Positions 6,331-28,509 of a DNA stretch of 64,000 bases are shown here, one piece after another. Origin of the DNA: Chloroflexota bacterium (GTDB lineage: Bacteria > Desulfobacterota > Binatia > UBA9968); assembly GCA_050257635.1 (NCBI GenBank), contig JBLMXG010000023.1, positions 4,350 through 68,349 on the forward strand, given 5' to 3'. The translations under genes were made by a program, and so were the position numbers. The notes below the pieces were generated by a model, which ran no database searches, was not told the origin of the DNA, and saw only the letters and a program-made list of their open reading frames with translations. How positions within the stretch are numbered: the stretch's first letter is position 1; each line of letters starts with the position of its first letter.

Positions 6331-6681
6331 TTACGCCGAGAAAGACGTGCCGCAGCCGCAAGTGGCCGTAGCGTTGGGATTGGTGAATTTGAAGCCGCCG
6401 CCGTAAAGGCCCGGGACGAAGTCGATCACCATGCCCGCCAGATAGGGCGCGCTGCGGTTATCAACGAAGACCTTCACTCCGTTCAGCTCCAAAACGATGT
6501 CGTCCGGTTTGTGCCGGTCTTCAAAATCCAGTTTGTAAGAGAACCCGGAGCAACCTCCGTCGGCCACGGCCACGCGCAGGCCACAACCGTCGCGCGAATC
6601 GCGGTCCAACAGCTTTTTGATCTGTTCGACGGCGCTCGCCGTCAGCGAAAGGCTCACGGTACCTGTAAGCGCGGGTTCCAT
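6331..6681 (-). CDS. erpA: Iron-sulfur cluster insertion protein (HesB/IscA/ErpA family)
   Basis: 116 aa ending ...CGCGTSFSA with the three conserved Cys of A-type carriers. Confidence 0.8.
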   Translation of the reverse strand: MEPALTGTVSLSLTASAVEQIKKLLDRDSRDGCGLRVAVADGGCSGFSYKLDFEDRHKPDDIVLELNGVKVFVDNRSAPYLAGMVIDFVPGLYGGGFKFTNPNATATCGCGTSFSA

Positions 6682-6752
6682 AAATACTCATCAAAAGGGT
6701 ATTGCTCGTTGTCAAACATGTCAAGAGCGTGTTTAGCCACCCGGACCGACGG

Positions 6753-7679: not shown

Positions 7680-7741
7680 GGCCTGATAGTGTTAGAACGA
7701 TTTCTCGGAGTCAACCGGGTAGGATGAAAGTCGCCGTGCAG

Positions 7742-10700
7742 CTACTGCATTCTTACCGAGACGACCTTGGAAACCCCGGGCTCTGCCATGGTGATGCCGT
7801 AGAGCATCTCGGCGGCCTGCATGGATTTCTTGTTGTGTGTGACCAGGATGAATTGCGAGTGCTCGCTCATTTCCTTGATCATGTCGTTGAAGCGATCGAT
7901 GTTGGCGTCGTCGAGCGGGGCGTCGACTTCGTCGAGAAAGCAAAACGGGCTGGGCTTGGTCAAAAAAATCGCGAACAAGAGGCTGACCGCAGTGAGCGCC
8001 TTTTCGCCTCCGGACAGCAGCGTGATCGATTGCAACTTTTTCCCCGGCGGTTGGACCACGATATCGACACCGGTTTCAAGGTAGTCGTTCTCGTCGGTGA
8101 GCACCAGCTTCGCCTTGCCGCCGCGGAACAGGCGCGGAAAGATGGCTTCGAACTTTTCATTGATCGATTCGAAGCTTTCCTTGAAACGCAGCCGGCAAAT
8201 CCGGTTCAGCTTGACGATGGTTTGCTGCAAGTCCGCGATCGACTTCTCCAGATCTTCTTTCTGTTGGTTCATGAAACGGAAGCGTTCGGCAAGCTCTTCG
8301 TATTCACCGATCGCGGCCAGATTGACTTCGCCCATGCGCTCCAACCTGCCGCGCAGATCCTCGATATCTGCGGCGAGCTCCGCTGGCGACGGCCGGTTCT
8401 CGGCGAAATCGATGGTCAAGTTTTCCAAGTCGGTATCGTACTTGTCCCGTAAGTTGGCGGCTAGATGTTGCAGGCCGAGGCGTTGCTCGGCGAGGGCCAA
8501 CTGAATACGGCTTCTTTCTTCCTGACAGGCTTCGAGCAAGGGCCGGAGTTCTTTGAGGCTTTCGGTGATCTCGGCAACTCCCATGGAAATTTGCCGGTAG
8601 TTCTGCCGGTCATCTTGCAGGCGGGCTTCGAGAGCCTGCAGCTCAACGCGGCTTTGTCGAAGCGCTTCTTCGGTTTGCGCTACCGCTTGCTCGATCTCGA
8701 CGCGGCGCCTCTGATAATCGCAGATCTGTTCCCGCCGCAAAGCGATCTCTTGGGCCGCTTCCTCTTGAAGTTTGAGGCGATTGGCCAAATTCGCATGCGT
8801 GTTTTCGCGTTTTTCGCCCAGGGCGGCGTTGCGGATGCGCGATTGCGTCACGGCGCTTTCGGCGGCTTCAGCGGAGTGGCCCAATTCAGTTGATTCGTTT
8901 TGCTTGCGCGCCAAGGCCGCCTCGCGGGCGAGCTTTTCCTCGGACCGAGTTTGCGCCGAGGTATGGCACCGCTGAATTTCGTCGGCGAGAAGTTGCAGTG
9001 TCGTCGTCAAATCGCTCTGTTCCTGGATGAGGGCTTGCGTCGATTGGGTCAAGCGCTCGCTCTCTTGACTTGCGGCGCGGTGCTCATGCTCCAAGCGGAC
9101 CCGCTCGAGATCGAGCCGATGGATCTCGGCGGCCAAGACCGTCTTTTGAGTTTCCACATGCTCCAAGCGCTGCTTGAGCTTTTCATGCTGGCGCTCCTCT
9201 TGAGCAATCTCCAGATCACGCTCGGCAAGTATACTTGTGAGCTCGCGAATGCGACGCCTTTGCGTTAGAAAGCTCGCTTCCAGCGGTGCCTCGCTGCCGC
9301 CGGTCACGGTGCCGATTGGGTCGATTACTTCGCCCTCAGAAGTCACCATCGTGCTGTGATAACCATTGCGGTTCCAAAGCGCCAAACCGGCCTGAAGATC
9401 GCATACCACCACCACGTCGGAAAGCAGATACTCCGCGACATCGCGAAACCCGTCTTGAACCGAAATGATGTCGATCATCGGTGCAATCACTTCAGCTTCG
9501 CCGAGAGGCAATTCTTTATGCGGCTTGCGCGATAGTTCGAGGGGTATGAAGCTGCCGCGGCCGGAAGCTTGGGTCTTGAGATAATCAATCGCTTCGAGGC
9601 CTTCTTGGTGGCTTTTTACGATGATGTATTGCAGACGGTCGCCAAGAACCGCGGTCAGCGCCTTTTCGTAGGGTTCCGGCGCCTCGATGACCTCGGCCAC
9701 CAAGCCGTAGATTCCGTTGGCGGCGGCCCCTTGCTGCTTCTTAAGCATGATAGCGCGCACGCCTTCTTGATAGCCTTCGTAGTTTTTTTGCAGCTCTTCG
9801 AGAGAACGCAAACGTGAACGGCTCTCGTGAATCTGTTCTTTGATCCGCGCGATTTTGGATTCCTGCTCTTCGCGGCTTTTGTTCAAGCCCTGAATCGTCG
9901 CGCTTGCCTGGGCGGCTTCGAGCGTGCGATCGCGCACGGCATCGAGGCAGCTTGCCAACGCTGCGGCGCTGTCCGTCTTCTTCGCTTCGCATCGGGCCAG
10001 TTCGGCCGATACCTGAGCGAGATCGGCACGGCTCCGTGCCAGCTCTCGATCGATTTCGTCGTGGCGTTTTTCCTTGGCGAGAGCTTCATTCTTCAAATTA
10101 GCGATCTGATTGGCGGTGTCGATTAGCGCCGCCTTTTCCTCTTCCAGTTCCGTCTGAAGAGTGCGCAGCCCGGATTGAAGCTTTTCGAGCTCATTTTCCT
10201 TGTCGCGAAGAAACGATTCTTCAAAAAGCGAAAGCTGAATAAAACTCTCGTTGGCCTTGTTGAGTTCTTCGATTTCCCGAGTGAGGGTTTTGATTCTCCC
10301 TTCGAGCTGTGCCAGGGAGGCGCGTGTGTTGCTTTCGTTCTGCGCCAGCTGCGCCAGATCCTTGCGGAAAAATTCACACTTTTGCTCGTCGGTTTGAATT
10401 GCAGATCGGCGCTGGTAGACGGCTTCCTGCTGCGCGCCGATCGCCTTGTCCGCTTCCAGTAACGACAAGCGCACCGACTCGTTCTCCGCTTCTTTGCCAT
10501 GCATCGAAGCCAGATACTCGGCAAGGCGCTTTTCGGCCTCGGTCAACCGGCTTTCTTTACGGGCAATTTCGGCGTTAAAAGCCGCGCGCTGTAAAAACGC
10601 TCCCGCGAGCTCTTTGTCTTTCAGCTCCGCTCTGAGGGCGCGATAACGCTCGGCCTTTTTCGCCTGCAATTCCATCGTGCGGATCTGCCGCTCGATCTCG

Positions 10701-13914: not shown

Positions 13915-14465
13915 GGCCGTCCTTCGGTGTCCAATCGGTATGGCGAAAGTTTGCTGCTGGGATCGTTTTTAGAAAGTTGCACTCTTCCTCGTTTGCGGAT
14001 GATGGTGGGCTAATCTCACACCTCAACTTCTCTATTCCTTGAACAGTTAACCCTAATCCGACAATTATCCTGGGTTCAAATTAAGTATTTTACGTGTGGG
14101 TCCGAGGGTAAATTTTGTGAAACGCGAATTTCGCCTATAGTGACCTTCTGCTGCCTCTGGCAACAGACCTATTCACGACGGAAATTGTCCGCGAACACCA
14201 ATCTTTATTGTCGGTTCATGGTTAACAGATCGTCTTCCAAACCAGGCTGAACTTATCGAGCCGATCGTCATCATCCGACCACCCGGGTATAAAAGAATGG
14301 AAACTGTGCAATCGCGATAAGTTTCCAAGCCCGTGAATTCGTTTGACTCAAGTTCTGCGAATGGGTAGTTATGCCTTGGTTTGAGTGTCCGGCGTTTTAC
14401 AAGTGCCGTTCGTGTCTCTGAGCGAATCGATGCACTGATTCTTTTTTAGGTTGGCGGAATACGAG

Positions 14466-15584
14466 ATGATCTCCATCCGCAAGCTCTGCAAAGAATTTAC
14501 TGTAACCGAAGGAAAGGTTGCAGCGCTCAAGAGCCTCGATTTGGAAGTCGCCGAGGGCGACTTCTTCGTCATCGTCGGCGCCAGCGGTTCGGGCAAAACG
14601 ACTTTACTGCGTTGCGTCGCCGGACTGGAGTCGCCGGACAAGGGTGAGATTCGCATCGCGGGAAAAACGGTATTTTGCGACGCGCCTCCAGTCTGGATCC
14701 CGCCCCAAGAGCGCAAGTTCGGCATGGTTTTCCAATCCTACGCGGTCTGGCCTCATTTGACAGTGTTCGAAAATGTTGCCTTGCCGCTGCGCGAAGGCGC
14801 ACAAAAAATTCCCCGCAGCGAAGTCAATCAGCGCGTACAGGAAGCCCTGCGCATGGTACAGCTCGACGAACAAAAAGATCGGTCCTCCACGCTTCTCAGC
14901 GGCGGCCAGCAGCAGCGAGTGGCATTGGCGCGGGCGATCGCGGTCAATCCTCGGGTGCTGTTGATGGACGAGCCGCTCAGCAACCTCGACGCGCGCTTGA
15001 GAGAGGAAGTGCGCGGCAAGATCCGCGATCTCGCCAAGCAACTGGGCGCAACGGTTTTATACGTCACCCATGACCAGGTAGAAGCCATGGCGATGGCGGA
15101 CAAGATCGCGGTCATGAGTTTCGGCAGGCTGCTGCAATACGGCGAGCCCATGGAGCTGTACCGCAAGCCTAATTGTCCCGAGGTCGCTAACTTTTTCGGT
15201 TCGATCAACTGGCTTAGCGGAAGGCTTGTCGCCGGCAACCTGGTTGAGACCTTGATCGGCCGGTTCGAAGTGTCCGCTTGCGGCGACTTGGGTGACGAAG
15301 TTCTTATAGGCTTTCGCCCCGAGTGTTTGGAGATTGTCGATCATACCGCAGGGCAAAACTGTTTTGGCGCGCTGCTTCGCTCCACCACTTTTCTGGGAGA
15401 TCAGTTTGTTTATGAGGTAGTTATCCATGACCAGTTGGTCGTGGGTAAGAGCCGCGTGGCGCCGCTGCGCGGCGACCGCCAGCTCCGGTTGCGTGTCACG
15501 CCTGAGGACCTTTTGGTGTTTCCGCAGTCGGCGGGCAAAGACCGGGAGGCTGTGGACCCGCAGCGTTTTCGTGCGGTCGGCTGA
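14466..15584 (+). CDS. ABC transporter ATP-binding protein (FbpC/PotA-like, C-terminal TOBE domain)
   Basis: Walker A GASGSGKTT, signature LSGGQQQRVALARA, Walker B LLMDEPLS, H-loop VTHD. ATG at 14466 chosen over the TTG at 14451. Confidence 0.85.
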   Translation: MISIRKLCKEFTVTEGKVAALKSLDLEVAEGDFFVIVGASGSGKTTLLRCVAGLESPDKGEIRIAGKTVFCDAPPVWIPPQERKFGMVFQSYAVWPHLTVFENVALPLREGAQKIPRSEVNQRVQEALRMVQLDEQKDRSSTLLSGGQQQRVALARAIAVNPRVLLMDEPLSNLDARLREEVRGKIRDLAKQLGATVLYVTHDQVEAMAMADKIAVMSFGRLLQYGEPMELYRKPNCPEVANFFGSINWLSGRLVAGNLVETLIGRFEVSACGDLGDEVLIGFRPECLEIVDHTAGQNCFGALLRSTTFLGDQFVYEVVIHDQLVVGKSRVAPLRGDRQLRLRVTPEDLLVFPQSAGKDREAVDPQRFRAVG

Positions 15585-15692
15585 TACCTCGGTATAAACA
15601 GGTGCCGCCTGGTCGGTCGAAACGACCAAGCGATTAGCGGGAGGCCATGACCACGCGGTTTCTTTGGCGTGGTCCCTAACGAAAGGTCGCTT

Positions 15693-17432
15693 ATGGAAGC
15701 GGTCCTCAGAATGCCCCGTTCCATTGCACTTCGCTTGAGTACTTCGCCGCTCCTGCTGGCGCTCGCCGTCGTGCCTATGCTGGTGATCTTCGTCCTGGTC
15801 GCAGCCCTGGTGTGGATCAGCTTTCAAACCGGGATCATCGGCACGGAAAACGTGCTCTATACATTAAAAAACTACGTCGCAATCCTGGGCGATCCGTTTG
15901 TGCTCAAAGTATTCTGGAACACCGTGATCTTCACGCTGTCGACGACCTTCACAGCGCTGGCGGTCGGGCTTCCGATCGCCTGGATGACCGAACGGAGCAA
16001 TCTTCCTGGCAAAGGGCTGGTTTACACGATCATGACGCTGGGCCTTTTGATTCCCGGAATATATACCGCGATGGGCTGGACCTTCATCGCCCATGTGCGG
16101 ATCGGTTTTTTGAATCGCTGGCTGATGGACGTTTTCGGTCTTGAGAGGGGCCCGATCAACATCGCGACTCCCTTGGGCATGGGCTTTGTACAGGGGCTAA
16201 ATCTCACGGCGCTGGCGTTTATTTTGACCGCACAGATGTTCCGCGCCATGAATCCGTCCCTCGAAGAAGCGGCAAAGATTCACGGCCTAAGCTTCATCGG
16301 CACCATGCGGCGAATCACGCTGCCGCTGGCATTTCCCGCTATCCTGGCGGCGATGATCTACATGCTCACCATCGGCATCGCGACTTTCGATGTCCCCGCG
16401 ATCATCGGCCTCGGCAATCGCATTTACATGCTCAGCACCTATGTCTATTTGAAGGCCAATCCGCCGGATAGCGGCCTACCTGAGTATGGAATCACCGCAG
16501 CCCTGGGCACGATGATGATTCTTTTGGCCGTCCTGCTGACGTGGTGGTACAGCCAGGTGCTGCGCCAGGGACATCGCTACGAAGTGATCACGGGGAAGGG
16601 CTACCGTCCAGCGCTGGTCGACCTCGGACGCTGGTCCATCGCCGCCTGGGTTTTCATTGCGCTGTATTTTCTCGCCACCAAATTAATCCCCCTGTTGCTG
16701 ATCGCCTACGCTGCGTTCACCCCATATCTTGCCCCGCCGTCATACGAAATGCTCGGCAAGATGTCGCTCGCGGGTTTTTACAATCTAAACTGGGATCTAT
16801 TCTGGCGCGGACTTTACAATACCGCTTTGCTCGTGATTGTCGTGCCCTTGGTGACCTTGCTGCTGTCTTTTTGTATTTCGTGGCTGATCGTGCGCTTGCG
16901 CAGCCGGATGCGTTACGTGCTGGAGTTCGGCGCGTTCTTGCCGCACGCCATGCCTGAAGTGATCATGGCCATTGGCGCGATGTTGATGGCGCTTTTCGTG
17001 CTGCCGAAATTTATCCCCCTCTACGGTTCGGTATGGCTGATCGCGATTGTTTACGTCATTTCCCGGTTGTCGTTTGCCACCCGGGCGCTTAACAGTTCAC
17101 TTTTGCAAGTCCACAAAGAGCTGGAAGAGGCCGCATACACAGCGGGCTTGTCGCCCATTCGGACTTCGTGGAGGATTCTCGTGCCCTTGCTCCGTCCTAC
17201 CCTCATGTCGGTTTGGATCTGGACGGCGATTCTCGTATATCGCGAGCTTACCGTCGCGGTGTTTCTCGTCAGTCAAGAGAGCATCACTTTGCCCGCGGTT
17301 ATTTGGAGCTACTGGTTCTCGGGAGCGATCAATCAAGCTGCCGCAGTGACGCTGCTTATGACGGCCGTGCTCACGCCGCTGATATTGATTTTTTGGTGGT
17401 TCGGGCGCCGCCAACTCATACCGGAGTCATAA
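15693..17432 (+). CDS. ABC transporter permease, fused double BPD_transp_1 domain (FbpB-like)
   Basis: About 580 aa with two repeats of the EAA-type permease motif (EEAAKIHGLS..., EEAAYTAGLS...). ATG at 15693 is preceded by GAAAGG. Confidence 0.8.
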   Translation: MEAVLRMPRSIALRLSTSPLLLALAVVPMLVIFVLVAALVWISFQTGIIGTENVLYTLKNYVAILGDPFVLKVFWNTVIFTLSTTFTALAVGLPIAWMTERSNLPGKGLVYTIMTLGLLIPGIYTAMGWTFIAHVRIGFLNRWLMDVFGLERGPINIATPLGMGFVQGLNLTALAFILTAQMFRAMNPSLEEAAKIHGLSFIGTMRRITLPLAFPAILAAMIYMLTIGIATFDVPAIIGLGNRIYMLSTYVYLKANPPDSGLPEYGITAALGTMMILLAVLLTWWYSQVLRQGHRYEVITGKGYRPALVDLGRWSIAAWVFIALYFLATKLIPLLLIAYAAFTPYLAPPSYEMLGKMSLAGFYNLNWDLFWRGLYNTALLVIVVPLVTLLLSFCISWLIVRLRSRMRYVLEFGAFLPHAMPEVIMAIGAMLMALFVLPKFIPLYGSVWLIAIVYVISRLSFATRALNSSLLQVHKELEEAAYTAGLSPIRTSWRILVPLLRPTLMSVWIWTAILVYRELTVAVFLVSQESITLPAVIWSYWFSGAINQAAAVTLLMTAVLTPLILIFWWFGRRQLIPES

Positions 17433-17518
17433 ATTTAACGCACCAAACTGTAGCATTCGAGTCGAGGCGGGCTAAAAACATATTGCCGGTGGTCAAAAGA
17501 AAAAGGGAGGACTAAACG

Positions 17519-18634
17519 ATGCTTTATCGAAGTAACGCCAGTGCGGTTGCGGCGGCGGCGATTTTTGTCGCCGGTTTGTTGTCTCCTACCTGGTTCGGTG
17601 GCGCGGCGGCGGCTGACAGCGCCAAGATCGCGGAGTTGATCAAGGGCGCGAAGCAGGAAACCACACTGCGGGCGCAGTGGGGCGCCGACACCTTGGACGG
17701 TGGTCCGGGTCTGCAAAAAATCGTCGCCGCGATGAACAAGAAATACGGCCTCAATATCAAGCCGTCGTTTACCCCGGGCGCCAACATGCAGGGGATGATG
17801 GGCAAGATCACCCGCGAACTGGCGGCCGGTCAGCCGGCGAGCAGCGACGTATATTTCGGCAACCCGCAATCGATGCTGCAAGCCATGGAGGCCAAATCGC
17901 TCAAGCCGATGGATTGGTATTCGATGCTCGAACGTCCCATGCAGAAAGAAGCCGGTTTCGACCCGATTGTGCCAGGCAACATCGGTATCGCAATGGCTTC
18001 GACGCTGGTCGGGGCGATCTACAACAGCAATTTGGTCAAGGGTAAAGATATTCCGCACAAGCTCGACGATTTTCTCAATCCCAAGTGGAAAGGCAAAATA
18101 GCTTCGACGCCGTACGCGGCTGGACTGCGTGAATTTGCCATGCCGGAACTGCTGGGCAAAGAGAAAATCATCGCCTTTGCTAAAAAGCTGTCCAAACATA
18201 TCGGCGGACTGCTGCGCTGCGGCGAGACCGACCGCATTACCAGTGGTGAGTTTCTCATGCTCGCCCTGGCGTGCGGAGATCAAGAAGTCAACATGGCGCA
18301 AAGGAAGGGAATTCCACTCGGTTACGCGATTATGGACGACGCCACGCTCTCCCATACTCGCTACGCAGGAATCCCGAAAAACTCCCGGGCACCGAATACC
18401 GCCGCCTTGTTTATCGCGTTCTTGCATACCGTCGAAGGCCAAAAGCTGATGTGGGACATCGATGGGCTTGACTTCCATCTGTACCCGGAATCGAATCAGA
18501 AAAAGAAATTAGATGCAGCTCGGGCGAGAGGCGCCAAAGTTGTCATCAGCTCGCCGCAATGGCTCAACAAGAATAAAGGCTATGTCGCGACCCAGCATGA
18601 GCTCGAAAAGATACTGCGCGGGGAAGTAAGCTAG
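17519..18634 (+). CDS. ABC transporter substrate-binding protein (family 1, Fe3+-type)
   Basis: Signal peptide, GGGAGG RBS, family-1 periplasmic binding protein profile. Confidence 0.8.
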   Translation: MLYRSNASAVAAAAIFVAGLLSPTWFGGAAAADSAKIAELIKGAKQETTLRAQWGADTLDGGPGLQKIVAAMNKKYGLNIKPSFTPGANMQGMMGKITRELAAGQPASSDVYFGNPQSMLQAMEAKSLKPMDWYSMLERPMQKEAGFDPIVPGNIGIAMASTLVGAIYNSNLVKGKDIPHKLDDFLNPKWKGKIASTPYAAGLREFAMPELLGKEKIIAFAKKLSKHIGGLLRCGETDRITSGEFLMLALACGDQEVNMAQRKGIPLGYAIMDDATLSHTRYAGIPKNSRAPNTAALFIAFLHTVEGQKLMWDIDGLDFHLYPESNQKKKLDAARARGAKVVISSPQWLNKNKGYVATQHELEKILRGEVS

Positions 18635-18660
18635 ATTACAATTTTCTATCGGACGAAAAT

Positions 18661-18691
18661 AAGAGGGGCGGGATTAAAACCCGCACCTCTT
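18661..18691. terminator. Hairpin between convergent genes (candidate bidirectional terminator)
   Basis: AAGAGGGGCGGG-ATTAAAA-CCCGCACCTCTT: 12-bp stem with one G:T wobble, AT-rich loop. Confidence 0.4.
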
Positions 18692-18712
18692 ATTATGCTA
18701 AGCATCTCAGGC

Positions 18713-19222
18713 TCAATGGTATTCCGTACCGGGCAGCGGGTTCTCCACCGCCTCTTCGAGGGATGTCGCCCGCTTCCATTCATGAGCCGGCCGGCTCCGG
18801 CCGTCGGTGCCAATCTGGTCCATGGCGGCATAGATTTCGATCTTGTAGCCGTCGGGATCGTAGAACTCCAGGCCGGGATTGCCGCCCGGGCCGCGCCGTC
18901 CTTCATAGAAAATTGTCACGCCTTTGGATTTTAGAAAATCCCGGATCTTGAATAGCTCCGAAACCGTGGCGACTTCCAAGGCCATGTGGTCGAAGCCGAC
19001 CTCGCCGCGCTTGGGCAGCTCGTTCTTTTCTGTCGCTTGAACCAAAGCAACCGTGTGATGGTCGGTGGCATTGCGGAAAAACATCATGCCACCTTCATTC
19101 TTGTCGGAAAATTTAAAACCCATGATATCGGTCCAAAATTTCGCGCTGCGCTCGATGTCGCTCACGCTCAGCACCACGTGGCCAATCTTTTTGATTTTGA
19201 TGGGAGAGCTTTCTGTTGCCAT
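18713..19222 (-). CDS. VOC-family (glyoxalase/bleomycin-resistance/extradiol-dioxygenase fold) protein, paralog 1
   Basis: KIGHVVLSVSDIERSAKFWTDIMGF ... HMALEV, the typical VOC betaalphabetabetabeta start. ATG at 19222 is preceded by GAAAGGAG. Paralog of 23230-23784. Confidence 0.75.
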   Translation of the reverse strand: MATESSPIKIKKIGHVVLSVSDIERSAKFWTDIMGFKFSDKNEGGMMFFRNATDHHTVALVQATEKNELPKRGEVGFDHMALEVATVSELFKIRDFLKSKGVTIFYEGRRGPGGNPGLEFYDPDGYKIEIYAAMDQIGTDGRSRPAHEWKRATSLEEAVENPLPGTEYH

Positions 19223-19339
19223 AAAAAACTCCTTTCCGTGAGTTTCGCGGTGGTTTTTCTGCCCCATTGGTTAGCAAGCTTTTAACACGGAATCCGGGCC
19301 AAAGGCAAAGCGCAAATTGTTCTCTCAATCCGTTGTTAA

Positions 19340-19741
19340 TCATTTGTACTGAAACCTTGCGATCAGCTTGCGGCTATAATGGCGCAGAGAATTCATGTCC
19401 AAGGATCGCCGCTTGAGCAAGTCGAGGCGGATCATTTTCCATTGGATGCTCTTGGCCAGGGCTTGGCGCTCGCCTTCCTCCTCGACATGCTTGAGCAAGT
19501 CTTCGAGCGTATGGATGTCTCTGAGAAGCTCGACTTCGGGGGGCAACACATGGGCGTTTTTGAGCACGTGGTAGCCGATGCGCAGTTCTTCGGGCACCCA
19601 GCTCAAGTCTTCCAACTTGAGCGGCTCGCCTTTGCCAGGCAAGTTGTCGAAGGCGCCGGCGCGTTGCGCTTCGAGAATTCGCTGCTCCGCGATTCTGTGC
19701 AGGAAAGATACTGCGCCAGTCTGCTCTCTCGGTCGCTTCAT
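19340..19741 (-). CDS. DUF1992 (DnaJC28-like C-terminal domain) protein
   Basis: IAEQRILEAQRAGAFDNLPGKGEPL matches the DUF1992 signature. Its ATG overlaps the upstream MFS stop (ATGA). Confidence 0.6.
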   Translation of the reverse strand: MKRPREQTGAVSFLHRIAEQRILEAQRAGAFDNLPGKGEPLKLEDLSWVPEELRIGYHVLKNAHVLPPEVELLRDIHTLEDLLKHVEEEGERQALAKSIQWKMIRLDLLKRRSLDMNSLRHYSRKLIARFQYK

Positions 19742-21009
19742 CCGCTCAACTCTTCGATGATAGGGCTTTTCCTTCCGCGCGCCGCTCGTTCCTCTGGCGG
19801 CCTGACGTGGCGAAACATCAGAAAAAATGCCACGTCGTTGATCAATTGTAACCCGCCGCCGATGAACAAGGGAAGGGTCAACGACACCGTTTGCATGAGA
19901 TAGGTGGAAATGGTCGGGCTGATGCCGAAAGGCACGATGCGCGCCAAACTGGTGACGCCGGCGGCAGAGCCGCGCTCGCTGGACTTGACCATCGCCATGA
20001 TAAACGATGCGCGCAAGGGATTGTCCATATAGGCGAAAAAGGAGCGAACGATCAACAAACTGGCACCCAAAGCCAAAGTCGGCGCCAACGGCAGAGTCAA
20101 ATAGAGCAGCGAAGCCAGAGCATGGGAAAACGCCATGGTTCTCACTACGCCGAGCCTGCGCGCGACGATCGGCGCGCTGAGGAACGACAGGGCGGCGAGA
20201 AAATATGACGCAAAGAAAATCACCCCGAGCGACTTAAGCTCCACGCCGAAGCGAAGATAGAACCAGTAGGGCACCAAGGCTCCAGCCATGCCGGCGCCGA
20301 AATTGTCGACCACCGCCAGCAGTGACATTTTGGTCACGAAGCTGCCAGTCGCGGTGGAAATTTTTCTTTCGATGTGGCGCGGTTGGTGTTCCTCGGTGAT
20401 CGAACCGTAAACGAACAACAAGACAATGCTGAATAGAATAGTCAAGCCAAACAGCGGCTTGTAGGATGCCACGGCGTTCCAGCCCCAGCTTTCTTGCAGA
20501 TATTGGGGCAGGCCGCTCACCAGCGCGCCCAGGGAGCCCATGATCGAGCCCGCGCAGAAGTTCAGCGCGTAAATCTGATTGCGATCCTCGGGGATGCATT
20601 TTTCCGCCAGCAAGGCCTCTTCGACGGGATTGAACGGACCGCCGCCGGAACCGCCGCCGCCGCTGCCACCGGCGCCGACGTTGGCAACGATCACCGCGAG
20701 AAAAATAAAAATCAGACTGCTAAAAAATATGTAAATTGCATTCGATGCGATGGTCAGCACGGCGAGCAGCATGAGGATTTTTCTGCGGCCGTAGCGATCC
20801 GACAGATAACCCCAGACCGCGGTCAGCAGAGCGCCGCTCAGATAGGCTACGGTAAAAACGATGCCGATGGTGACCGTGGAGTAACCGAGGTTGCTCAAGT
20901 AAATCGCGAAGACGACGTTCAGGTAGGAAAAAGCGAAGGCGCGGATGCCGCGCGACGCCATCAGCAGTTTGGCGTCGTGGTGAAGGCTTCGCAGTGTATT
21001 CATAGTCAA
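19738..21009 (-). CDS. MFS transporter (tandem paralog B)
   Basis: 12-TM-like hydrophobicity, MFS motif A GYLSDRYGRRKILML, central Gly-rich loop GGSGGGGSGGG. Start is TTG at 21009 or ATG at 21003, within 2 nt of the upstream stop. Confidence 0.8.
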   Translation of the reverse strand: MTMNTLRSLHHDAKLLMASRGIRAFAFSYLNVVFAIYLSNLGYSTVTIGIVFTVAYLSGALLTAVWGYLSDRYGRRKILMLLAVLTIASNAIYIFFSSLIFIFLAVIVANVGAGGSGGGGSGGGPFNPVEEALLAEKCIPEDRNQIYALNFCAGSIMGSLGALVSGLPQYLQESWGWNAVASYKPLFGLTILFSIVLLFVYGSITEEHQPRHIERKISTATGSFVTKMSLLAVVDNFGAGMAGALVPYWFYLRFGVELKSLGVIFFASYFLAALSFLSAPIVARRLGVVRTMAFSHALASLLYLTLPLAPTLALGASLLIVRSFFAYMDNPLRASFIMAMVKSSERGSAAGVTSLARIVPFGISPTISTYLMQTVSLTLPLFIGGGLQLINDVAFFLMFRHVRPPEERAARGRKSPIIEELSG

Positions 21010-22271
21010 GCGGGTGCGGGGTTCGCAATTGCGGTCTGTTCTTCCGGCGGCTTGATGTTGCGGAATATGAAGTAAAAACTGAAGTCATTGATCAGTTGCA
21101 GAAAGCCTCCCGAAAAGATCGGCACGTTCACTGAGAAGGACTGCATCAAATAGGCTGCTATCGTCGGACTCACCGCGACCGGCACCTGGCGCGATAGCGT
21201 TGTGATTCCAGCCGCTGAGCCCCGATCCTCGGGATTGACGACACCCATGATAAATGAACTTCGCAAAGGGTTGTCCATGTAGGCTAGAAAAGAGCGGGAT
21301 ATGGTGATGGCCGCAGCCACCGCAAATGTCGGGGCGAGAGGTAGTACGATATTCAAGACCGACGCCATGCCATGCGAGACGGCCATGGTTTTGACCACGC
21401 CGAAACGGCGCGCAATCGCAGGCGCGATCAAGAACGAAGACGCGGCGAGAATGTAAGAAAGAAAAAACGTGAAGCCGAGGGATTTCAATTCCATGCCGAA
21501 GCGCAGAAAAAACCAGTAAGACATCAAGGGGCTGACGAGCCCTGCGCCAAAATTATCGACTACGCCGAGCATGGCGAGCTTGGTGACGATGCCGAAGCGC
21601 TGAGTCGGTCGAGGGGAGTGCTTCTCGGCAGGTCGTTTTTGCCGCGGCACGTGGTGCTCGTCGATGCTCGCGTAGGCGAAGATGATCCCGATGCTGAACA
21701 ATACCGTCATGGCAAACAGTGGCTTGTACGACGTGACGGTTTGCCATCCGTAGCTCTGTTGTAAATATTGCGGCAGGCCGCTGACCAGGGCGCCGAGCGA
21801 GCCCATGATCGACCCGACGCACGCGTTCGTCGCGAAAATCCAGTTTCGATTTTCCGGCGTGCATTTTTCCGCCAGCAGGGCTTGTTCGACGGGGTTGAAC
21901 GGCCCGCCGCCTTGTCCGCCCGCCCCGGAGCTACCGACGCCGACCGCGGCGATACTTTCCGCGATCAAAATAAAAACGAGATGGCTAAACAATAGATAGA
22001 GAAGATTGGAAATAATCGTCAGCACAGCCAGAAGGATCAGAATGTTTTTGCGTCCATAACGGTCAGCCAAGTATCCCCACACCGCGGTAAGCAGCGCGCT
22101 GGTGGCATAACCGGTGGAAAAAACCAGACCGACAGTGACCGTGGAATAGCCCAGTTGAGCGAGATAGATCGCGAAGACGATGCTCAGATACGAAAATGCA
22201 AAAGCGCGGACGCCGCGCGAGGCCATCAACACCAGTATATCCCGTTGCAAATTTCTCTTGCCGAAAGTCAT
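21006..22271 (-). CDS. MFS transporter (tandem paralog A)
   Basis: Collinear homolog of 19738-21009 (LMASRGVRAFAFSYLSIVFAIYLAQLGYSTVTVG..., GYLADRYGRKNILIL). Its ATG overlaps the DUF1152 stop (ATGA). Confidence 0.8.
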   Translation of the reverse strand: MTFGKRNLQRDILVLMASRGVRAFAFSYLSIVFAIYLAQLGYSTVTVGLVFSTGYATSALLTAVWGYLADRYGRKNILILLAVLTIISNLLYLLFSHLVFILIAESIAAVGVGSSGAGGQGGGPFNPVEQALLAEKCTPENRNWIFATNACVGSIMGSLGALVSGLPQYLQQSYGWQTVTSYKPLFAMTVLFSIGIIFAYASIDEHHVPRQKRPAEKHSPRPTQRFGIVTKLAMLGVVDNFGAGLVSPLMSYWFFLRFGMELKSLGFTFFLSYILAASSFLIAPAIARRFGVVKTMAVSHGMASVLNIVLPLAPTFAVAAAITISRSFLAYMDNPLRSSFIMGVVNPEDRGSAAGITTLSRQVPVAVSPTIAAYLMQSFSVNVPIFSGGFLQLINDFSFYFIFRNIKPPEEQTAIANPAPA

Positions 22272-23233
22272 TGGCCGGCCGCCCCTTTGCGAGATTTTTC
22301 TCGTTCAAGATCGAGCTCAGATTTGATGCCAAGCACGCCCAGAGAGGCGTTCGCTTGTTCCAAACTGGTGCTCGCTCGAACCGCCTGCGCCGGCTTTGAC
22401 AGTGTTTCGAGTAACACCGTGGCCGACAGAAAGAACGTCAGAGCGGTGAGAGGTGTGAGTTTAACGCTTCTTTCGCCGCTGCGGATCCTGGTTTCACCCC
22501 ATGCGCCGTGAAAGCATTTGAGTGGAATCTGGCTAGCTTCGGTAGGCACGTGTTTAATCACCTCCTGCAGTTCCGCGGCAATTTTCGGCGTCAATGAACA
22601 AGCGCCGAGCCAGCCGCCGCCGGCGGCGATTTTGTTCAAAGCCATGTCTATTTCATCAATACTCAGCTCGCCGTCACTGCCGTATCCGAAAACTCCCCAA
22701 AGTACACGGTGGCCGCGCTTTTCTAACTCCACATAGGCTGCGAGCATGATCGAATCCGCCAACGGGCTGCGCAGGCCGGGTTCGTGACCCTGCGCGAGCG
22801 AGTCGCCGCCGACATCGAGCCCGACAAGCAAATCCGTTTGGAGCTCCTTAATTGCCGCTTCCATACCCGCCACTACGCCTTGTACGCCGCCGTTGATATC
22901 GATCAACAGGATCTCGGTGCCGAGCACCTCGGCCATCCTGGCTTCGGCGAATGGAACGCCGGTTGCGGTTTGGCTGGCAGCGCTGGCCATCCAGGCGCGC
23001 GGGTGCAGAGCGCGCACGTTTATTACCTCGTCGAAGTTGCGCGGTCCGGGAATCGGATCGTAGATCAGACGCTCCCAGGAAAGGCCGCCTAGAGTGCATC
23101 GCAAGCCGCAGAATTCGAGAAATCTTGCGGCAGCGAGAGCGCCCACCACATCGCCGCCGCCGCCCACGCCGATCACCAAGGCGTGCGACGAAGCGCGAAG
23201 GATGTCTTCGAGTGAAGGCGGCACTGCGCTCAT
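22268..23233 (-). CDS. DUF1152-family protein
   Basis: LVIGVGGGGDVVGA glycine motif characteristic of DUF1152. Internal Met 60 (MSAVPPSLED) taken as start because its ATG forms an ATGA overlap with the stop of the upstream VOC gene; the longer track ORF would overlap that gene by 180 nt. Confidence 0.55.
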   Translation of the reverse strand: MSAVPPSLEDILRASSHALVIGVGGGGDVVGALAAARFLEFCGLRCTLGGLSWERLIYDPIPGPRNFDEVINVRALHPRAWMASAASQTATGVPFAEARMAEVLGTEILLIDINGGVQGVVAGMEAAIKELQTDLLVGLDVGGDSLAQGHEPGLRSPLADSIMLAAYVELEKRGHRVLWGVFGYGSDGELSIDEIDMALNKIAAGGGWLGACSLTPKIAAELQEVIKHVPTEASQIPLKCFHGAWGETRIRSGERSVKLTPLTALTFFLSATVLLETLSKPAQAVRASTSLEQANASLGVLGIKSELDLEREKSRKGAAGQ

Positions 23234-23784
23234 CGGGGCAAGTGAGTATCCTGTCCCGGCACTGGATTGGCAATCGCTTCTTCCAAGGATTTTACGCCGT
23301 GCCACTCGTTCGATGGGCGGACTCGGCCATCGGAGCCGACTTGATCCACGCCCCAATAAATCTCCAGAGAATGATTGTCCGGATCGCGAAACTCGACGGC
23401 GATCTGGCAACCGGCGCGCCGCCGCCCTTCAAAATCGATCTTGGCGTTGAATTGGCGCAGCCGATCGCGCGCTCGCAGGACTTCGCCCAGCGTCGGCACT
23501 TCGAAGGCGAGATGGTGCAATTCGCGATTGCGATTTTGGCCGTCACCGGCGCCGACGAGAGCCAGACAATGATGATCGGTATGGCAGCGCAAAAACACCA
23601 TGCCGCCGGGCATCATCGCTTCGGGATAGACATCGGAGACCTTGAAGCCCAAAACCTTCGTGTAGAACTCCGTCGATCGTTCGAGGTCGGTAACTTGCAG
23701 GACGACGTGGCCGACCTTGCGGATGTGAAACCCCATGCCCTGCGGCGGTGTCATACTCTTGAGCTTTTCAATATCGACGGCCAT
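23230..23784 (-). CDS. VOC-family (glyoxalase/extradiol-dioxygenase fold) protein, paralog 2
   Basis: KVGHVVLQVTDLERSTEFYTKVLGF ... HHLAFEV. GGAGGA lies 6 nt before the ATG at 23784. Confidence 0.75.
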   Translation of the reverse strand: MAVDIEKLKSMTPPQGMGFHIRKVGHVVLQVTDLERSTEFYTKVLGFKVSDVYPEAMMPGGMVFLRCHTDHHCLALVGAGDGQNRNRELHHLAFEVPTLGEVLRARDRLRQFNAKIDFEGRRRAGCQIAVEFRDPDNHSLEIYWGVDQVGSDGRVRPSNEWHGVKSLEEAIANPVPGQDTHLPR

Positions 23785-23842: not shown

Positions 23843-24637
23843 TCAGCTTGGCGATCCCGGCATGAGGTTATGGGCGCTCAGAAAATCGATGACGAAGGCG
23901 TCGAAGCCGGCAGGATCTTCGATATTGCAGGCATGGCCGGTCTTGGGCAAGATTCGATGCACTGCGCCAGGAATCAGCGAAACCGTTTTCTTCCCCCCGG
24001 CCAGAGAGTTGTCGTACTCGCCGTTGATCACCAACGTCGGCACTTTCATCGTACCTAGCCGCCGTGTCATATCGAGCCCGCCGCGGGCGCGAAAAATCTG
24101 GCCGATGGATTCGCCCGAGAGCGAGGGATCTCTTTCGACGAACATGTGGAGCAGATATTTGCCCAATTTCGTTTCGGCAAAGTCGGGCGCGACCAGTTCG
24201 CGCAGATGCTGCAGGTGATACTTTTCGATTCCGATCCGGGTATAACCGTGGATGCGGCTATCGATGGAGCCGCCCGGTCCGCTGCTGCCGCCCACCAGGA
24301 TAATCGCCTTGAACAGCTCAGGATGATCTAAGCCCAACAAGATTGCCATACCCGAGCCGACGCTGACGCCGGCGAGAATCGCTTCGCGCACACCTTCGTC
24401 GCGACACACGCCCAGCACGTCGTTGGCCATATCGTTGAGGGTAAACGGCGTTTCGGGTTTATCCGAGCGGCCGTATCCGCGGATATCGACGGCGATCACT
24501 TTGAAGTAGGTCGAAAAATGAGCGATCTGATACATCCACAGATTATGGTCGAACGGGTTCGCGTGGACCATGATGAAGGGCAAGCCCTCGCCGGAGACTT
24601 CGTAGTAGATTTTTATGCCGTTGGCCGTGCTGTACAT
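23843..24637 (-). CDS. Alpha/beta-fold hydrolase
   Basis: Nucleophile elbow GVSVGSG, HANPFDHNLW oxyanion region, 264 aa. Confidence 0.8.
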   Translation of the reverse strand: MYSTANGIKIYYEVSGEGLPFIMVHANPFDHNLWMYQIAHFSTYFKVIAVDIRGYGRSDKPETPFTLNDMANDVLGVCRDEGVREAILAGVSVGSGMAILLGLDHPELFKAIILVGGSSGPGGSIDSRIHGYTRIGIEKYHLQHLRELVAPDFAETKLGKYLLHMFVERDPSLSGESIGQIFRARGGLDMTRRLGTMKVPTLVINGEYDNSLAGGKKTVSLIPGAVHRILPKTGHACNIEDPAGFDAFVIDFLSAHNLMPGSPS

Positions 24638-24769
24638 TTTATCGAAGTTTTACGTTCAAAACGTTCAAGCCGCTCAACCTCTGCGCTCCGTTCAAATCGT
24701 CAGAAGCCGTTGTGTTCCATCTCTCCGACGTTTTAAACGAAATGAACATTTTGTACGGCTTGAGCGAGT

Positions 24770-25474
24770 TCAGCTGGGTTTGCGCGGCCGCTCTTGCTTG
24801 ATCTTTTCTTTGACCTCGTCGAGCTTCATCACGTCCGAATACTTGTGATGCAGATCGAAGAGATTCACTTTGTGCGACAGCGGGCTGCGATCGAAGACGC
24901 ACTCTTCGGCGATCGACACGTGGTAGCCGAGCGAGTAGGCATCGACGCAACTGGCGCGCACGCAGCCGCTGGTGCTTTCGCCGCAGACGATCAGGCTGTC
25001 GACGCCCAACTGGGTCAGGTGGGCGACCAGCGGCGTGCCGAAAAATCCGCTCGCTCTTTCCTTGAAAATGACCACGTCGCCTGGCTGTGGTTTGAACTCT
25101 TCCTTGATCTCAAAGGCCTGCGGATCGATCTTCACGCGCTGGCGATTGGTGGCGTAAATCGCGTCCGGCTTGGCTTCCGGGCGGGTTTCCGTGGTGGTGT
25201 AAAAAATCGGCAGCTTCAGCGACCGCGCGAGGGCGAAAAGCTCTTGGGTCGGTTTGATCGCATTGTGGGCGTAAACGCCGCAGGAGCTTTTGTAAGTGTC
25301 GACCAGCTCGTGCGGTTCTTTGGCACCGCCTTCATAGGCGAGGTTGTAAAGGTCAATAGCCAACAGAGCCGGCCGCTGGCCGATGTAGGTGTCGCGGTGG
25401 TAGGGGACGTAGGTTTTTAAAATCTCGGGCGTGACGACATCCTTCCAACAATGGTCTTCGAAGTCTGAGGCCAT
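24770..25474 (-). CDS. Isochorismatase-family (cysteine hydrolase) protein
   Basis: PALLAIDLYN ... VVIFKERASGFFGTPLVAHLTQLGVDSLIVCGESTSGCVRAS, the catalytic Cys in the conserved isochorismatase/CSHase context. Confidence 0.75.
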   Translation of the reverse strand: MASDFEDHCWKDVVTPEILKTYVPYHRDTYIGQRPALLAIDLYNLAYEGGAKEPHELVDTYKSSCGVYAHNAIKPTQELFALARSLKLPIFYTTTETRPEAKPDAIYATNRQRVKIDPQAFEIKEEFKPQPGDVVIFKERASGFFGTPLVAHLTQLGVDSLIVCGESTSGCVRASCVDAYSLGYHVSIAEECVFDRSPLSHKVNLFDLHHKYSDVMKLDEVKEKIKQERPRKPS

Positions 25475-25708
25475 AACGATTCTCCTTACGATTTGAAAAT
25501 AGCGCGGCGTGCTCGCCGACGAACATCTTTCATCTACCCGGTAGCGGAATGGGTTGTCAAGGAAACCGCAAGGAGTCGATCGGAGGCTGGAGCACAGTTA
25601 AAAGCCACCTGTTGGCGGGTTCAAAGCTGTTCACGCGCCGCCCAGGTTTGCACCGCCATCCAATATCCGTTACTTTCAAAACGATCCGTAAACACCGCGG
25701 TTACAACC

Positions 25709-26992
25709 TTGGAACCACGCAGCCCATCCGCAATTCCATCCGGCCCAACTGGCGTCAGTCGGAAAGTCGCTTTCGCGGCGCTCCAGCATCACGATTTCCG
25801 CTGGTTTTTTTTCACCACTATGTTCGCCATGATGGCGGATAACATCGAGCATGTGATCTCTTACTGGATGCTCTTTCAAAAATTCCATTCGCCGGTGCTG
25901 GCCGGCTTCGCGGTGATCAGCCATTGGACGCCGTTTCTGCTGCTCTCGGTTTATTTCGGCGGCTTGGCGGACCGCTACGATTGCCGCAAACTGATTCAAG
26001 TCGCCCAGGTGATGTATATGGGCGTGTCGTTCGCCTGGGCCGTCTTATTTCTCACCGACACCATCGAAGTCTGGCATGCCTGCGTGCTGCTGGTGGTTCA
26101 TGGCGTCGCCGGAGTGTTTTGGACGCCCGCCGAGCAGCTGATCATTCATGACATCGCCGGTTCCGACGATCTGCCGAGCGCCGTGCGGCTCAATGCCACG
26201 AGCCGGCAATTGGGCATTCTTTTCGGCCCGGCGGTGGGCGGCGGACTCATGCTATGGTTCGGCGCGTCGGCCGGGCTTTTCACTAACGCGTTGATCTATT
26301 TGCCGCTGACGATCTGGCTGATGATCGTTCCCTATACAGGCCATACGCGCGAAGGCGCGCCACCGCGCCGGGCGCTGCGCTGGCGCGATGCGCTGGATGT
26401 GATCGGTGAGGTCGCCCACAACCGTCCGGTGATTACGATGGTCGTGTTGGGGGGAGCGGCATCATTGTTCGTCGGCAACGCCTTCCAGGCCAACATGCCG
26501 GAGTTCGCCCACGATCTTGGCACCGAGAAAGCCGATTTCGCCTACAGCGCGCTGCTCGCTGCCAACGCGGCGGGCTCGGTGTTTGGCGGCTTCGTGCTCG
26601 ACGGTAAAGCCTGGTTACCCCCGACGGTAAAGTCGTCGATCGGGTGCGCAATTCTTTGGTGCGTGGCAATGACCGCCTTTGCCTTTTCAAACAGCTATCC
26701 GCTGTCGTTGATTATTTTGTTCGCCGCCGGGGCGTTGAATTTATCCTTCTATTCGATCGCGCAGACGATTGTTCAATTGGAAGCGCCGGTGGCGTTGCGC
26801 GGCCGGCTGATCGGACTGTTTTCCATGTCCGCTTACGGGTTGCGCGCGTTCAGCGGTTTGACGGTCGGCGTGGTCGGTGGCCTGATCGGGATCCACTGGT
26901 CATTGGCGCTGAGCTCGATGATTTTGCTCGCGGTAACGGTCCTCCTGCTTGCCTTCGCATCTCAAGAGCAACGCGGCGAAGAGCTCGGCTGA
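25709..26992 (+). CDS. MFS transporter, MFS_3 / EntS-like (transmembrane secretion effector) family, tandem paralog 1
   Basis: Homologous throughout to 27199-28509 (DNIEHVISYWMLFQKFHSPVLAGFAVISHWTPFLL...). The track ORF (25493) carries an Arg-rich 95-aa extension absent from the paralog; TTG at 25709 is proposed as start but is uncertain. Confidence 0.7.
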   Translation: MEPRSPSAIPSGPTGVSRKVAFAALQHHDFRWFFFTTMFAMMADNIEHVISYWMLFQKFHSPVLAGFAVISHWTPFLLLSVYFGGLADRYDCRKLIQVAQVMYMGVSFAWAVLFLTDTIEVWHACVLLVVHGVAGVFWTPAEQLIIHDIAGSDDLPSAVRLNATSRQLGILFGPAVGGGLMLWFGASAGLFTNALIYLPLTIWLMIVPYTGHTREGAPPRRALRWRDALDVIGEVAHNRPVITMVVLGGAASLFVGNAFQANMPEFAHDLGTEKADFAYSALLAANAAGSVFGGFVLDGKAWLPPTVKSSIGCAILWCVAMTAFAFSNSYPLSLIILFAAGALNLSFYSIAQTIVQLEAPVALRGRLIGLFSMSAYGLRAFSGLTVGVVGGLIGIHWSLALSSMILLAVTVLLLAFASQEQRGEELG

Positions 26993-27198: not shown

Positions 27199-28509
27199 TT
27201 GATTCCAGCGAGTTTGGAGACGATCTTGGCTTCGAGTGATATTCGCGTCAAAACCGCCGGCGCTGCATCAAACAAGAATATCGCCTTTGCGGCGCTGCAC
27301 CATCGCGACTATCGCCGCTATTTTCTGGTCAACCTGTTTTCCACCATGGGCGATAACATCGAGCATGTGATCAGCTATTGGATGCTCTATCAAAAATTCC
27401 ATTCGCCGGTGTTGGCCGGCTTCGCCGTGATCAGCCATTGGACGCCATTCCTATTTTTTGCGGTCTATTTCGGCGCGCTGGCCGACCGCCACGATTGCCG
27501 GCGCGTGATTCAAACCGCGCAGTGCCTGTACGCGGCGGTCTCGCTTACTTGGGCGATTTTATTTTTGACCGGCACGATTCAACTTTGGCATGCTTGCGTG
27601 TTGCTGGTGATTCACGGTATGGCCGGCGTCCTGGGAAGTCCGGCGAGCCAGCTCATCATTCACGACATCGTCGGCCGTGAGTATTTGCAGAGCGCGGTGC
27701 GGCTCAATTCCACCGGACGCCAACTGGGCGTCTTGCTCGGACCGGGAGTCGGCGGGGCTACTATGCTTCTGTTCGGTCCGTCGATGGGGCTGTTCATCAA
27801 CGTGCTGATGTTTCTGCCGATGGTTTTTTTTATGGCTATGTTGCCGTACAGCGGCCATGGGCGCGAGACCGGCGTGAGCGCCAGGACGGCGCGCTTCAGC
27901 CTCGCCAGTACGTTCCGGCTCTTGCGCGAGACTTCTTCCAATCCGACGATTCTATCGATGATTCTGCTCGGCGGCGCCACGTCGCTGCTGGTCGGCAATG
28001 CCTTTCAAGCGCAGATGCCGGAGTTTGCTCACGAGTACGGCCACGACAAGCAGGACCTGGCTTACAGCGTTCTGCTCGCGGCCAACGCTGCGGGCGCGGT
28101 GGTCGGCGGCATCTTGCTCGAAGGCAGAGGCTTGCTCCAGGCGAACGCGCGCAACGCCTCAATCTGTTCGATCCTGTGGTGTCTGGCGATCATCGGCTTC
28201 GCCGCGTCACCCAGTTACCACTTATCGGTCGTCCTGCTTTTCTGCGCCGGGCTATTGAATCTGGCATTCCTGTCGATGGCGCAGACGCTGGTGCAGTTGC
28301 AGGCGCCGGCACAGCTGCGCGGCCGTCTGATCGGCTTGTTCAACACGTCGAATAATGGTCTGCGCGCTTTCAGCGGGGTAACCGTCGGCGTGGCCGGCGG
28401 CCTGATCGGCGTCCATTGGTCGCTGGCGCTCAGCGCGATGATCTTGTTAGCGGTTACGGTGGCGCTGTTCGCTTTGATTATTCCCGGGCGGAGCGAAGAA
28501 ATTGGCTGA
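27199..28509 (+). CDS. MFS transporter, MFS_3 / EntS-like family, tandem paralog 2
   Basis: 436 aa, 12 predicted hydrophobic segments, GDNIEHVISYWMLYQKFHSPVLAGFAVISHWTPF. Confidence 0.75.
   Translation: MIPASLETILASSDIRVKTAGAASNKNIAFAALHHRDYRRYFLVNLFSTMGDNIEHVISYWMLYQKFHSPVLAGFAVISHWTPFLFFAVYFGALADRHDCRRVIQTAQCLYAAVSLTWAILFLTGTIQLWHACVLLVIHGMAGVLGSPASQLIIHDIVGREYLQSAVRLNSTGRQLGVLLGPGVGGATMLLFGPSMGLFINVLMFLPMVFFMAMLPYSGHGRETGVSARTARFSLASTFRLLRETSSNPTILSMILLGGATSLLVGNAFQAQMPEFAHEYGHDKQDLAYSVLLAANAAGAVVGGILLEGRGLLQANARNASICSILWCLAIIGFAASPSYHLSVVLLFCAGLLNLAFLSMAQTLVQLQAPAQLRGRLIGLFNTSNNGLRAFSGVTVGVAGGLIGVHWSLALSAMILLAVTVALFALIIPGRSEEIG

Follow-up and report, generated by a model that had tools for sequence, protein, structure and literature searches.

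A conserved DUF1152-MFS-DUF1992 gene trio in Binatia and the predicted seven-gene transcription unit around it

The 64,000-nt stretch of Binatia DNA analysed here (contig JBLMXG010000023.1; hereafter the window) carries a minus-strand gene run, VOC2, DUF1152, MFS-A, MFS-B and DUF1992, whose members follow one another in stop-to-start contact from 23784 to 19340, as read from the sequence. They encode a vicinal-oxygen-chelate (VOC) protein, two proteins with domains of unknown function (DUF1152 and DUF1992) and two permeases of the major facilitator superfamily (MFS). Is this arrangement more than dense packing, and if so, what would the genes do together? We found that the five-gene block is a real, conserved and tightly packed module in Binatia. 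Our proposal, to which we give a probability of about 0.5, is that it belongs to a conserved, co-transcribed seven-gene unit that has the trio DUF1152-MFS-DUF1992 as its core and serves the uptake and cytosolic conversion of the compound carried by the permease.

An earlier note on this DNA, made from the sequence alone, had read the five genes as a module and had suggested a gene-neighbourhood search as its check. That search was run, and the order VOC-DUF1152-MFS-MFS-DUF1992 was found again in many Binatia genomes. The synteny scan used one genome per species and yielded 32 loci, nearly all from metagenome-assembled genomes (MAGs) of Candidatus Binatia or 'Deltaproteobacteria'. An MFS gene of this type lies directly after DUF1152 in 28 of the 32 loci; DUF1992 comes next in 17 and is missing in three loci with enough sequence. 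Two sub-clades were distinguished. In sub-clade 1 (DUF1152 at least ~70% identical) there are two MFS paralogues in fixed order, usually with VOC2 and two hydrolase genes, ABH and ISO (alpha/beta-hydrolase and isochorismatase family, respectively), upstream. In sub-clade 2 (DUF1152 65-70% identical), DUF1152 is joined by a single MFS and by DUF1992, VOC genes are lacking, and the flanks hold Amidohydro_2, ornithine-cyclodeaminase family (OCD), solute-binding protein (SBP), MFS_3 and TctA genes. Order and orientation of the trio are kept at 57-70% protein identity although both flanks have been replaced. The invariant core is DUF1152-MFS-DUF1992, to which sub-clade 1 has added the two hydrolases, a second MFS and the VOC genes.

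The tight junctions recur as well. In ~13 loci, drawn from both sub-clades, DUF1152 overlaps the following MFS gene by 1, 4 or 8 nt; in most others the two are 8-36 nt apart. The MFS and DUF1992 genes overlap by 4 nt in four loci and are 13-108 nt apart in many, and VOC2 and DUF1152 overlap by 4 nt in six loci and are 9-200 nt apart in six others. The order VOC-DUF1152-MFS-MFS-DJC28_CD, with 4-nt overlaps, came up again in three loci reached from MFS homologues, independently of the scan; ISO and VOC1, a second VOC gene, are variable there.

In the window itself, the four junctions were re-read on the minus strand exactly as the earlier note had placed them (Table 1). Its family assignments were borne out by Pfam, which gives PF00903 for VOC2, then PF06626, PF07690 (twice) and PF09350. 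The interval 18713-23784 that it had assigned to the operon does contain the five coupled genes, and in addition a sixth one, VOC1. The note had also named mis-called starts as a possible source of the overlaps; the lengths of homologues and their conserved N-termini speak for the starts used. For DUF1152, homologues have 316-324 aa and keep M1 and S7-D10, and the MFS homologues are 410-423 aa long at 96-100% coverage. The ATG of DUF1992 is the first start of its open reading frame and lies upstream of the region aligning with E. coli YhdN. MFS-B orthologues in relatives start at an ATG, 1-2 nt after MFS-A.

Table 1. Features of the locus, with positions in the window
Feature	Position	Strand	Remarks
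ISO	24770..25474	-	isochorismatase-family cysteine hydrolase, 234 aa; PF00857 E 1.4e-29; first gene
ABH	23843..24637	-	alpha/beta-hydrolase, PcaD-like, 264 aa; PF00561/PF12697
VOC2	23230..23784	-	one-domain VOC protein, 184 aa; PF00903 E 2.6e-23; first of the five coupled genes
DUF1152	22268..23233	-	321 aa, cytosolic; PF06626; ATGA overlap with VOC2
MFS-A	21006..22271	-	permease, 421 aa; PF07690 E 8.7e-34 over the whole model; ATGA overlap with DUF1152
MFS-B	19738..21003	-	permease, 421 aa from ATG 21003; PF07690; tandem paralogue, TTG 21009 overlaps MFS-A stop
DUF1992	19340..19741	-	YhdN-like, 133 aa; PF09350 DJC28_CD; ATGA overlap with MFS-B
VOC1	18713..19222	-	one-domain VOC protein, 169 aa from ATG 19222; PF00903 E 1e-19
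VOC2/DUF1152 junction	23233-23230	-	ATGA; sequence reading
DUF1152/MFS-A junction	22271-22268	-	ATGA; sequence reading
MFS-A/MFS-B junction	21009-21006	-	stop TGA 21008-21006 overlaps TTG 21009-21007; alternative ATG 21003-21001 gives a 2-nt gap
MFS-B/DUF1992 junction	19741-19738	-	ATGA; sequence reading
Gly-rich TM4-TM5 signature loop, MFS-A	21849-21941	-	from alignment
Gly-rich TM4-TM5 signature loop, MFS-B	20578-20676	-	from alignment
Predicted sigma70-type promoter	25531..25560	-	-35 TTGACA 25560-25555, 18-nt spacer, -10 TAGATG 25536-25531
Predicted promoter-like block	19279..19308	-	DUF1992-VOC1 spacer; -35 TTGCCT 19308-19303; TGn and TAAAAG 19284-19279
Predicted hairpin terminator	18658..18694	-	between convergent VOC1 and ABC-transporter SBP genes
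Long imperfect hairpin, REP-like	24650..24766	-	ISO-ABH spacer; 9-nt periodic GTTCAA(N3) units, then inverted TTGAAC(N3) copies

On a crude gene map, four of the five stop/start overlaps of the window fall in the five-gene run. Since a single further overlap was found among the ~27 other same-strand junctions, a run of four is not the background state of this genome. Strong Shine-Dalgarno (SD) sequences precede ISO (AAGGAG), VOC2 (GGAGGA) and VOC1 (AAGGAG), and those of the four overlapped genes (DUF1152, MFS-A, MFS-B and DUF1992) are weak or missing. Because of the stop/start overlaps and the weak or missing SDs, these four genes are most likely translated by termination-reinitiation, which would tie their synthesis together.

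The earlier note had the operon headed by the VOC gene. This part did not hold: two further co-directional genes, ABH and ISO, lie upstream of VOC2, and the conserved putative promoter sits ahead of ISO, with none between ABH and VOC2. The predicted sigma70-type promoter is located ~57 nt upstream of the first ATG, and in an alignment of 10 orthologous regions it is the sole conserved block besides the SD. In the aligned orthologous ABH-VOC2 spacers, nothing but the SD GGAGGA is conserved, and no conserved promoter was found. The features that suggest a translationally coupled operon, namely the overlaps, the weak internal SDs and the lack of a conserved promoter before VOC2, were all read from the sequence. 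The unit is most likely P-ISO-hairpin-ABH-VOC2-DUF1152-MFSA-MFSB-DUF1992, in which a single promoter would drive all seven genes. VOC1, the eighth gene, is separated from DUF1992 by a 117-nt spacer, in which a promoter-like block is the sole conserved element besides the SD (alignment of eight orthologues). It would be expressed by read-through and from its own promoter, and the predicted terminator (18-nt arms, 89% complementary, with a 1-nt loop and then a T-rich tail) would close the unit. Rfam gave no family in the 17-27 kb part of the window.

The hairpin in the ISO-ABH spacer has an RNA minimum free energy of -42.3 kcal/mol (z -2.9) and is present at the same position in 11 loci (L003, L005, L006, L007, L008, L012, L019, L028, L033, L114 and L116). 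The consensus of these loci has 23 pairs, four of them with compensatory changes of the type GTTCAA/TTGAAC to GTTCCA/TGGAAC. Rfam gave no match to the hairpin. Arrays of GTTCAA/TTGAAC are also found between genes elsewhere on Binatia contigs, with one copy in the window, and the element looks like a dispersed repeat of the repetitive extragenic palindromic (REP) kind. A role as an operon-specific regulator was rejected, as the same repeat arrays are found at other intergenic sites. A 17-nt direct repeat, TTAC[G/T]TTCAAAACG[T/A]TC, occurs upstream of ISO (25670-25686) and again in the ISO-ABH spacer (24650-24666), and an inverted repeat (24683-24706 and 25482-25505) that shares ATTTGAA overlaps the ISO leader. 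Both may be outlying REP-like copies or an operator. In one MAG (L005, 8984-9316), both MFS genes have shrunk to fragments of ~85 aa in all between intact DUF1152 and DUF1992 genes; the gap carries a TTGAAC repeat array (9285-9299), and the loss is either natural or due to faulty assembly.

DUF1152 matches PF06626 with an E-value of 2.5e-90 and 303.1 bits (cut-off 27), residues 19-313 covering model positions 1-294 of 295. It carries a GVGGGGD motif at residues 22-28, and hydropathy gave no transmembrane (TM) segments. Pfam at E-values up to 10 returned PF06626 alone and no PF02585. PDB sequence searches, both by phmmer with the single sequence and with a profile, gave nothing meaningful and no LmbE protein. 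A first AlphaFold2 model from a shallow alignment (pLDDT 70.8) was replaced by one from a diverse 79-sequence alignment, which reached a pLDDT of 96.5 and a pTM of 0.94. In Foldseek, MshB ranks first with this model, weakly (E 1.4e-3, TM-scores 0.34-0.41), and the modelled fold appears Rossmann-like and closest to LmbE/PIG-L. Among the 79 diverse members, the invariant residues are G24, G25 and D28 (GGGGD), D140, G142 and D144 (DVGGD), D160 (SPLAD), and D187 and E189 (GxDGE); six of them are carboxylates. W53, E54, R55, D59, E151, E232 and R251 are near-invariant. No histidine is found among the invariant or near-invariant columns, and in the model all of these residues are placed on loops after beta-strands.

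The comparison with LmbE/PIG-L proteins (MshB, BshB/BC1534, Dbv21, diacetylchitobiose deacetylase and the GalB hydratase) also brings out differences. The TM-scores stay at the low values given above, and DUF1152 has no sequence similarity to them. The loops equivalent to the LmbE zinc motifs (A/P)HPDD and HxxH are the glycine loops GGGGD and DVGGD, and the model has an extra C-terminal subdomain of ~90 residues. We infer that DUF1152 is cytosolic and that its pocket, rich in carboxylates and glycine loops, may bind a hard metal, a phosphate group, or a ligand of the polyhydroxy or amino type.

MFS-A and MFS-B are 63% identical to each other, and both are kept in order in sub-clade 1. Their PF07690 scores are 117 and 100 bits (cut-off 33.4), motif A can be read directly in both (GYLADRYGRK in MFS-A, GYLSDRYGRR in MFS-B), and the hydropathy profile fits 6+6 TM segments. 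No characterised efflux or uptake family in NCBIfam was matched above its curated cut-off; the efflux models gave 17-32 bits vs. cut-offs of 131-571. At the place of the DHA1 antiporter motif C (GxxxGPxxGG), TM5 reads GSLGALVSG, with neither GP nor GG. What sets the pair apart is the cytoplasmic TM4-TM5 loop of ~30 residues, G(A/S)GG(S/T)xGGG(Q/S)GGGPFNPVE(Q/E)ALLAEKCxPExRN, which is near-invariant in both paralogues and in both sub-clades. Judged from the alignment, this loop defines a distinct MFS subfamily, and a cytosolic partner could dock on it.

DUF1992 was assigned to PF09350 with an E-value of 7.3e-23 and 80.9 bits (cut-off 27). Residues 13-131 align with the E. coli YhdN model PRK10203 (E 2.4e-28, 98.9 bits vs. 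an equivalog cut-off of 155), and PDB sequence searches gave nothing meaningful. E. coli yhdN is sigma32-regulated and co-transcribed with zntR, and its deletion causes a heat-shock growth defect (PMC12356324). The two proteins share the PF09350 domain and a full-length model alignment; the E. coli gene is not linked to a transporter, whereas DUF1992 here is.

The two VOC proteins are 45% identical, and only part of the relatives have VOC1. Both match extradiol dioxygenases at E-values of 1e-15 to 1e-18 and FosA/FosB/FosX-type proteins at 1e-7 to 1e-10; the NCBIfam extradiol scores are 55-67 bits vs. equivalog cut-offs of 320-366. One-domain (class I.1) extradiol dioxygenases are exemplified by BphC2 and BphC3 of Rhodococcus globerulus P6. 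The VOC proteins resemble this class, and the catalytic domain of type I extradiol dioxygenases (BphC/XylE), in their length of ~170-190 aa, the metal triad (H26, H91 and E141 in VOC2 aligned to the BphC catalytic domain, 1HAN) and the equivalent of His195 (H72). ABH matches the 3-oxoadipate enol-lactonase model TIGR02427 with an E-value of 2.3e-32 and 112 bits (cut-off 256). In ISO, which is syntenic in relatives, the Cys motif GESTSGCV was read directly, and the best matches, all weak and below cut-off, are RutB, BiuH and PncA. A siderophore island, with an EntB-like isochorismatase, EntS-like MFS_3 proteins and an Fe-type ABC transporter, was rejected as the leading reading because ISO has this Cys-type amidohydrolase motif and these best matches.

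Aromatic meta-cleavage and other catabolic operons with a dedicated MFS symporter are represented by mhp with MhpT and pca with PcaK. The present unit is like them in joining an extradiol-like VOC, an ABH of the PcaD or meta-cleavage-product-hydrolase type and MFS permeases. It differs in that dehydrogenase, hydratase-aldolase and regulator genes are absent, and the conserved core consists of two DUF proteins and an MFS rather than of catabolic enzymes. Like the earlier note, which was not aware of such a module, we found no description of one, and literature searches on DUF1152, PF06626 and IPR010581 returned no papers. Enzyme-plus-MFS operons are already known; this gene set and any function of DUF1152 are undescribed.

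How far does the linkage extend beyond Binatia? The DUF1152 family is small (812 clusters at 50% identity, at E <= 1e-3, among 1.84 billion proteins), mostly archaeal and deep-branching, and has neither a publication nor a solved structure. A distant scan covered 80 metagenome loci of a sub-family 33-46% identical to the query. The query was a 15-sequence sub-cluster, the 79-sequence alignment being too diverse, so that the scan samples part of the DUF1152 family. The immediate neighbours of these genes are heterogeneous, and the MFS was absent from the nearest non-Binatia relatives (L029-L031, 46-54% identical). The linkage is specific to Binatia and no general property of DUF1152. A polytopic membrane protein is encoded directly downstream of DUF1152 in ~10 of 39 sequence clusters vs. 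9% of the other genes in these loci (L001-L113; counted without phylogenetic correction). These proteins are of the MFS, Na+/H+ exchanger, AEC/Mem_trans, DUF981, DUF998, DUF554 and TauE families. A general partnership of DUF1152 with secondary transporters was not adopted, the families being heterogeneous and many of the genes convergent, and was kept as a lead only. A second context was seen in a distant clade, where an LCAT-like lipase, DUF1152 and a Na+/H+ exchanger lie on one strand (L031, 6467-10407; L072-L074 and L091, around 4326-8358). In a bin labelled Acidobacteria (L024, 7983-8948), a lone DUF1152 gene, which shares 65% identity with the Binatia type and has no MFS or DUF1992 beside it, adjoins TonB-dependent-receptor-like giant genes; it could be due to horizontal transfer or mis-binning.

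In the proposed uptake and conversion, DUF1152 would be a cytosolic small-molecule enzyme or ligand-binding protein acting on whatever compound its dedicated MFS transports. DUF1992 might be an accessory, chaperone-like factor that aids the permease or the enzyme, and the VOC metalloenzymes and the two hydrolases may add further catabolic steps in this lineage. We lean towards uptake followed by cytosolic conversion because the genes that the two sub-clades have added are typical of catabolism (amidohydrolases, a lactonase-like hydrolase, dioxygenase-like VOCs) or of uptake (solute-binding proteins, TctA). Several points weigh against this proposal. All of the conservation comes from one class, Binatia, so that the synteny could partly be shared descent. 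This MFS subfamily or DUF1992 was found within 6 kb of DUF1152 in none of the 80 distant metagenome loci; DUF1152 thus does not need them. The VOCs differ from extradiol dioxygenases in second-sphere residues, the His241 position of VOC2 being R122 and the Tyr250 position E131. The best weak matches of the MFS pair include the MdtG, EmrD and Bcr/CflA efflux pumps, so that transport could run in either direction.

The opposite direction is the basis of a different explanation, close to the detoxification or secretion suggested in the earlier note: a small molecule that is toxic or destined for secretion would be modified in the cytosol by VOC, DUF1152 and the hydrolases and then pumped out by the two MFS proteins. 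We consider this possible, with clearly less weight than uptake. In NCBIfam, the MFS pair has weak best hits to H+ antiporters and drug efflux pumps, among them TIGR00900 and BcbE besides those named above, but these and all other efflux and resistance matches stay far under the curated cut-offs, and motif C is degenerate in TM5. The VOC proteins do match Fos-type resistance proteins; they are nearer to extradiol dioxygenases. ABH weakly matches macrolide esterases, and upstream, in divergent orientation, there are two further MFS_3 genes (EntS-like). The flanking enzyme types suit uptake and catabolism at least equally well. MarR/TetR-type regulators, typical of efflux operons, were absent, as were matches to defence systems. 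By analogy, a more specific version would be a low-molecular-weight-thiol pathway, with the VOC as a FosB-like transferase and an LmbE-fold conjugate amidase acting before export. MshB/Mca-type amidases appear to have the closest fold to DUF1152, which however lacks the Zn-His motifs of LmbE amidases.

The genes might also have no common function at all, their adjacency arising from genome compaction and shared Binatia descent and the overlaps being a by-product of packing. ATGA is the most frequent form of overlap between bacterial genes, every syntenic locus is from one class, distant DUF1152 genes have heterogeneous neighbours, and the VOC2-DUF1152 and MFS-DUF1992 distances vary among loci as given above. 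We nevertheless regard this as improbable, because the trio persists, in the same order and orientation, while both of its flanks are replaced. The overlaps also recur in both sub-clades, only one other was seen among the remaining same-strand junctions of the window, and the internal genes have no SD or promoter of their own.

Two sets of transport genes border the operon. Two tandem MFS_3 paralogues (EntS-like 'transmembrane secretion effector'; 25733-26992 and 27199-28509, plus strand) are divergent from the operon promoter region and syntenic in two of the other loci (L033 and L116). On the other side, the genes of an ABC importer (14451-18634, plus strand; ATPase, fused double permease and SBP_bac_8-type binding protein) run convergently towards the operon. 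L116 lacks them here and has RNase E/G right after VOC1, which makes an insertion probable. PADLOC defence models gave no match.

A bolder form of the proposal is that DUF1152, MFS and DUF1992 make up a physical three-part machine, in which the enzyme docks on the TM4-TM5 loop and transport is coupled to conversion, DUF1152 being a new all-carboxylate LmbE-like variant. We think this unlikely; if true, it would be an MFS transport of a group-translocation-like or metabolon type, with DUF1992 perhaps as adaptor or assembly factor. If the trio is an ordinary uptake-and-catabolism step, the gain would be the annotation of two DUFs only. In either case, this operon places DUF1152 for the first time in a strong functional context, where selection in Binatia, an abundant lineage of uncultured soil and groundwater bacteria, has kept it linked to a dedicated subfamily of permeases and to a YhdN-like protein. 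The confident DUF1152 model, its nine invariant residues and the signature loop of the transporter offer handles for experiments, which could reveal new enzyme chemistry on an LmbE-like scaffold and a first molecular role for the DUF1992/DnaJC28 domain.

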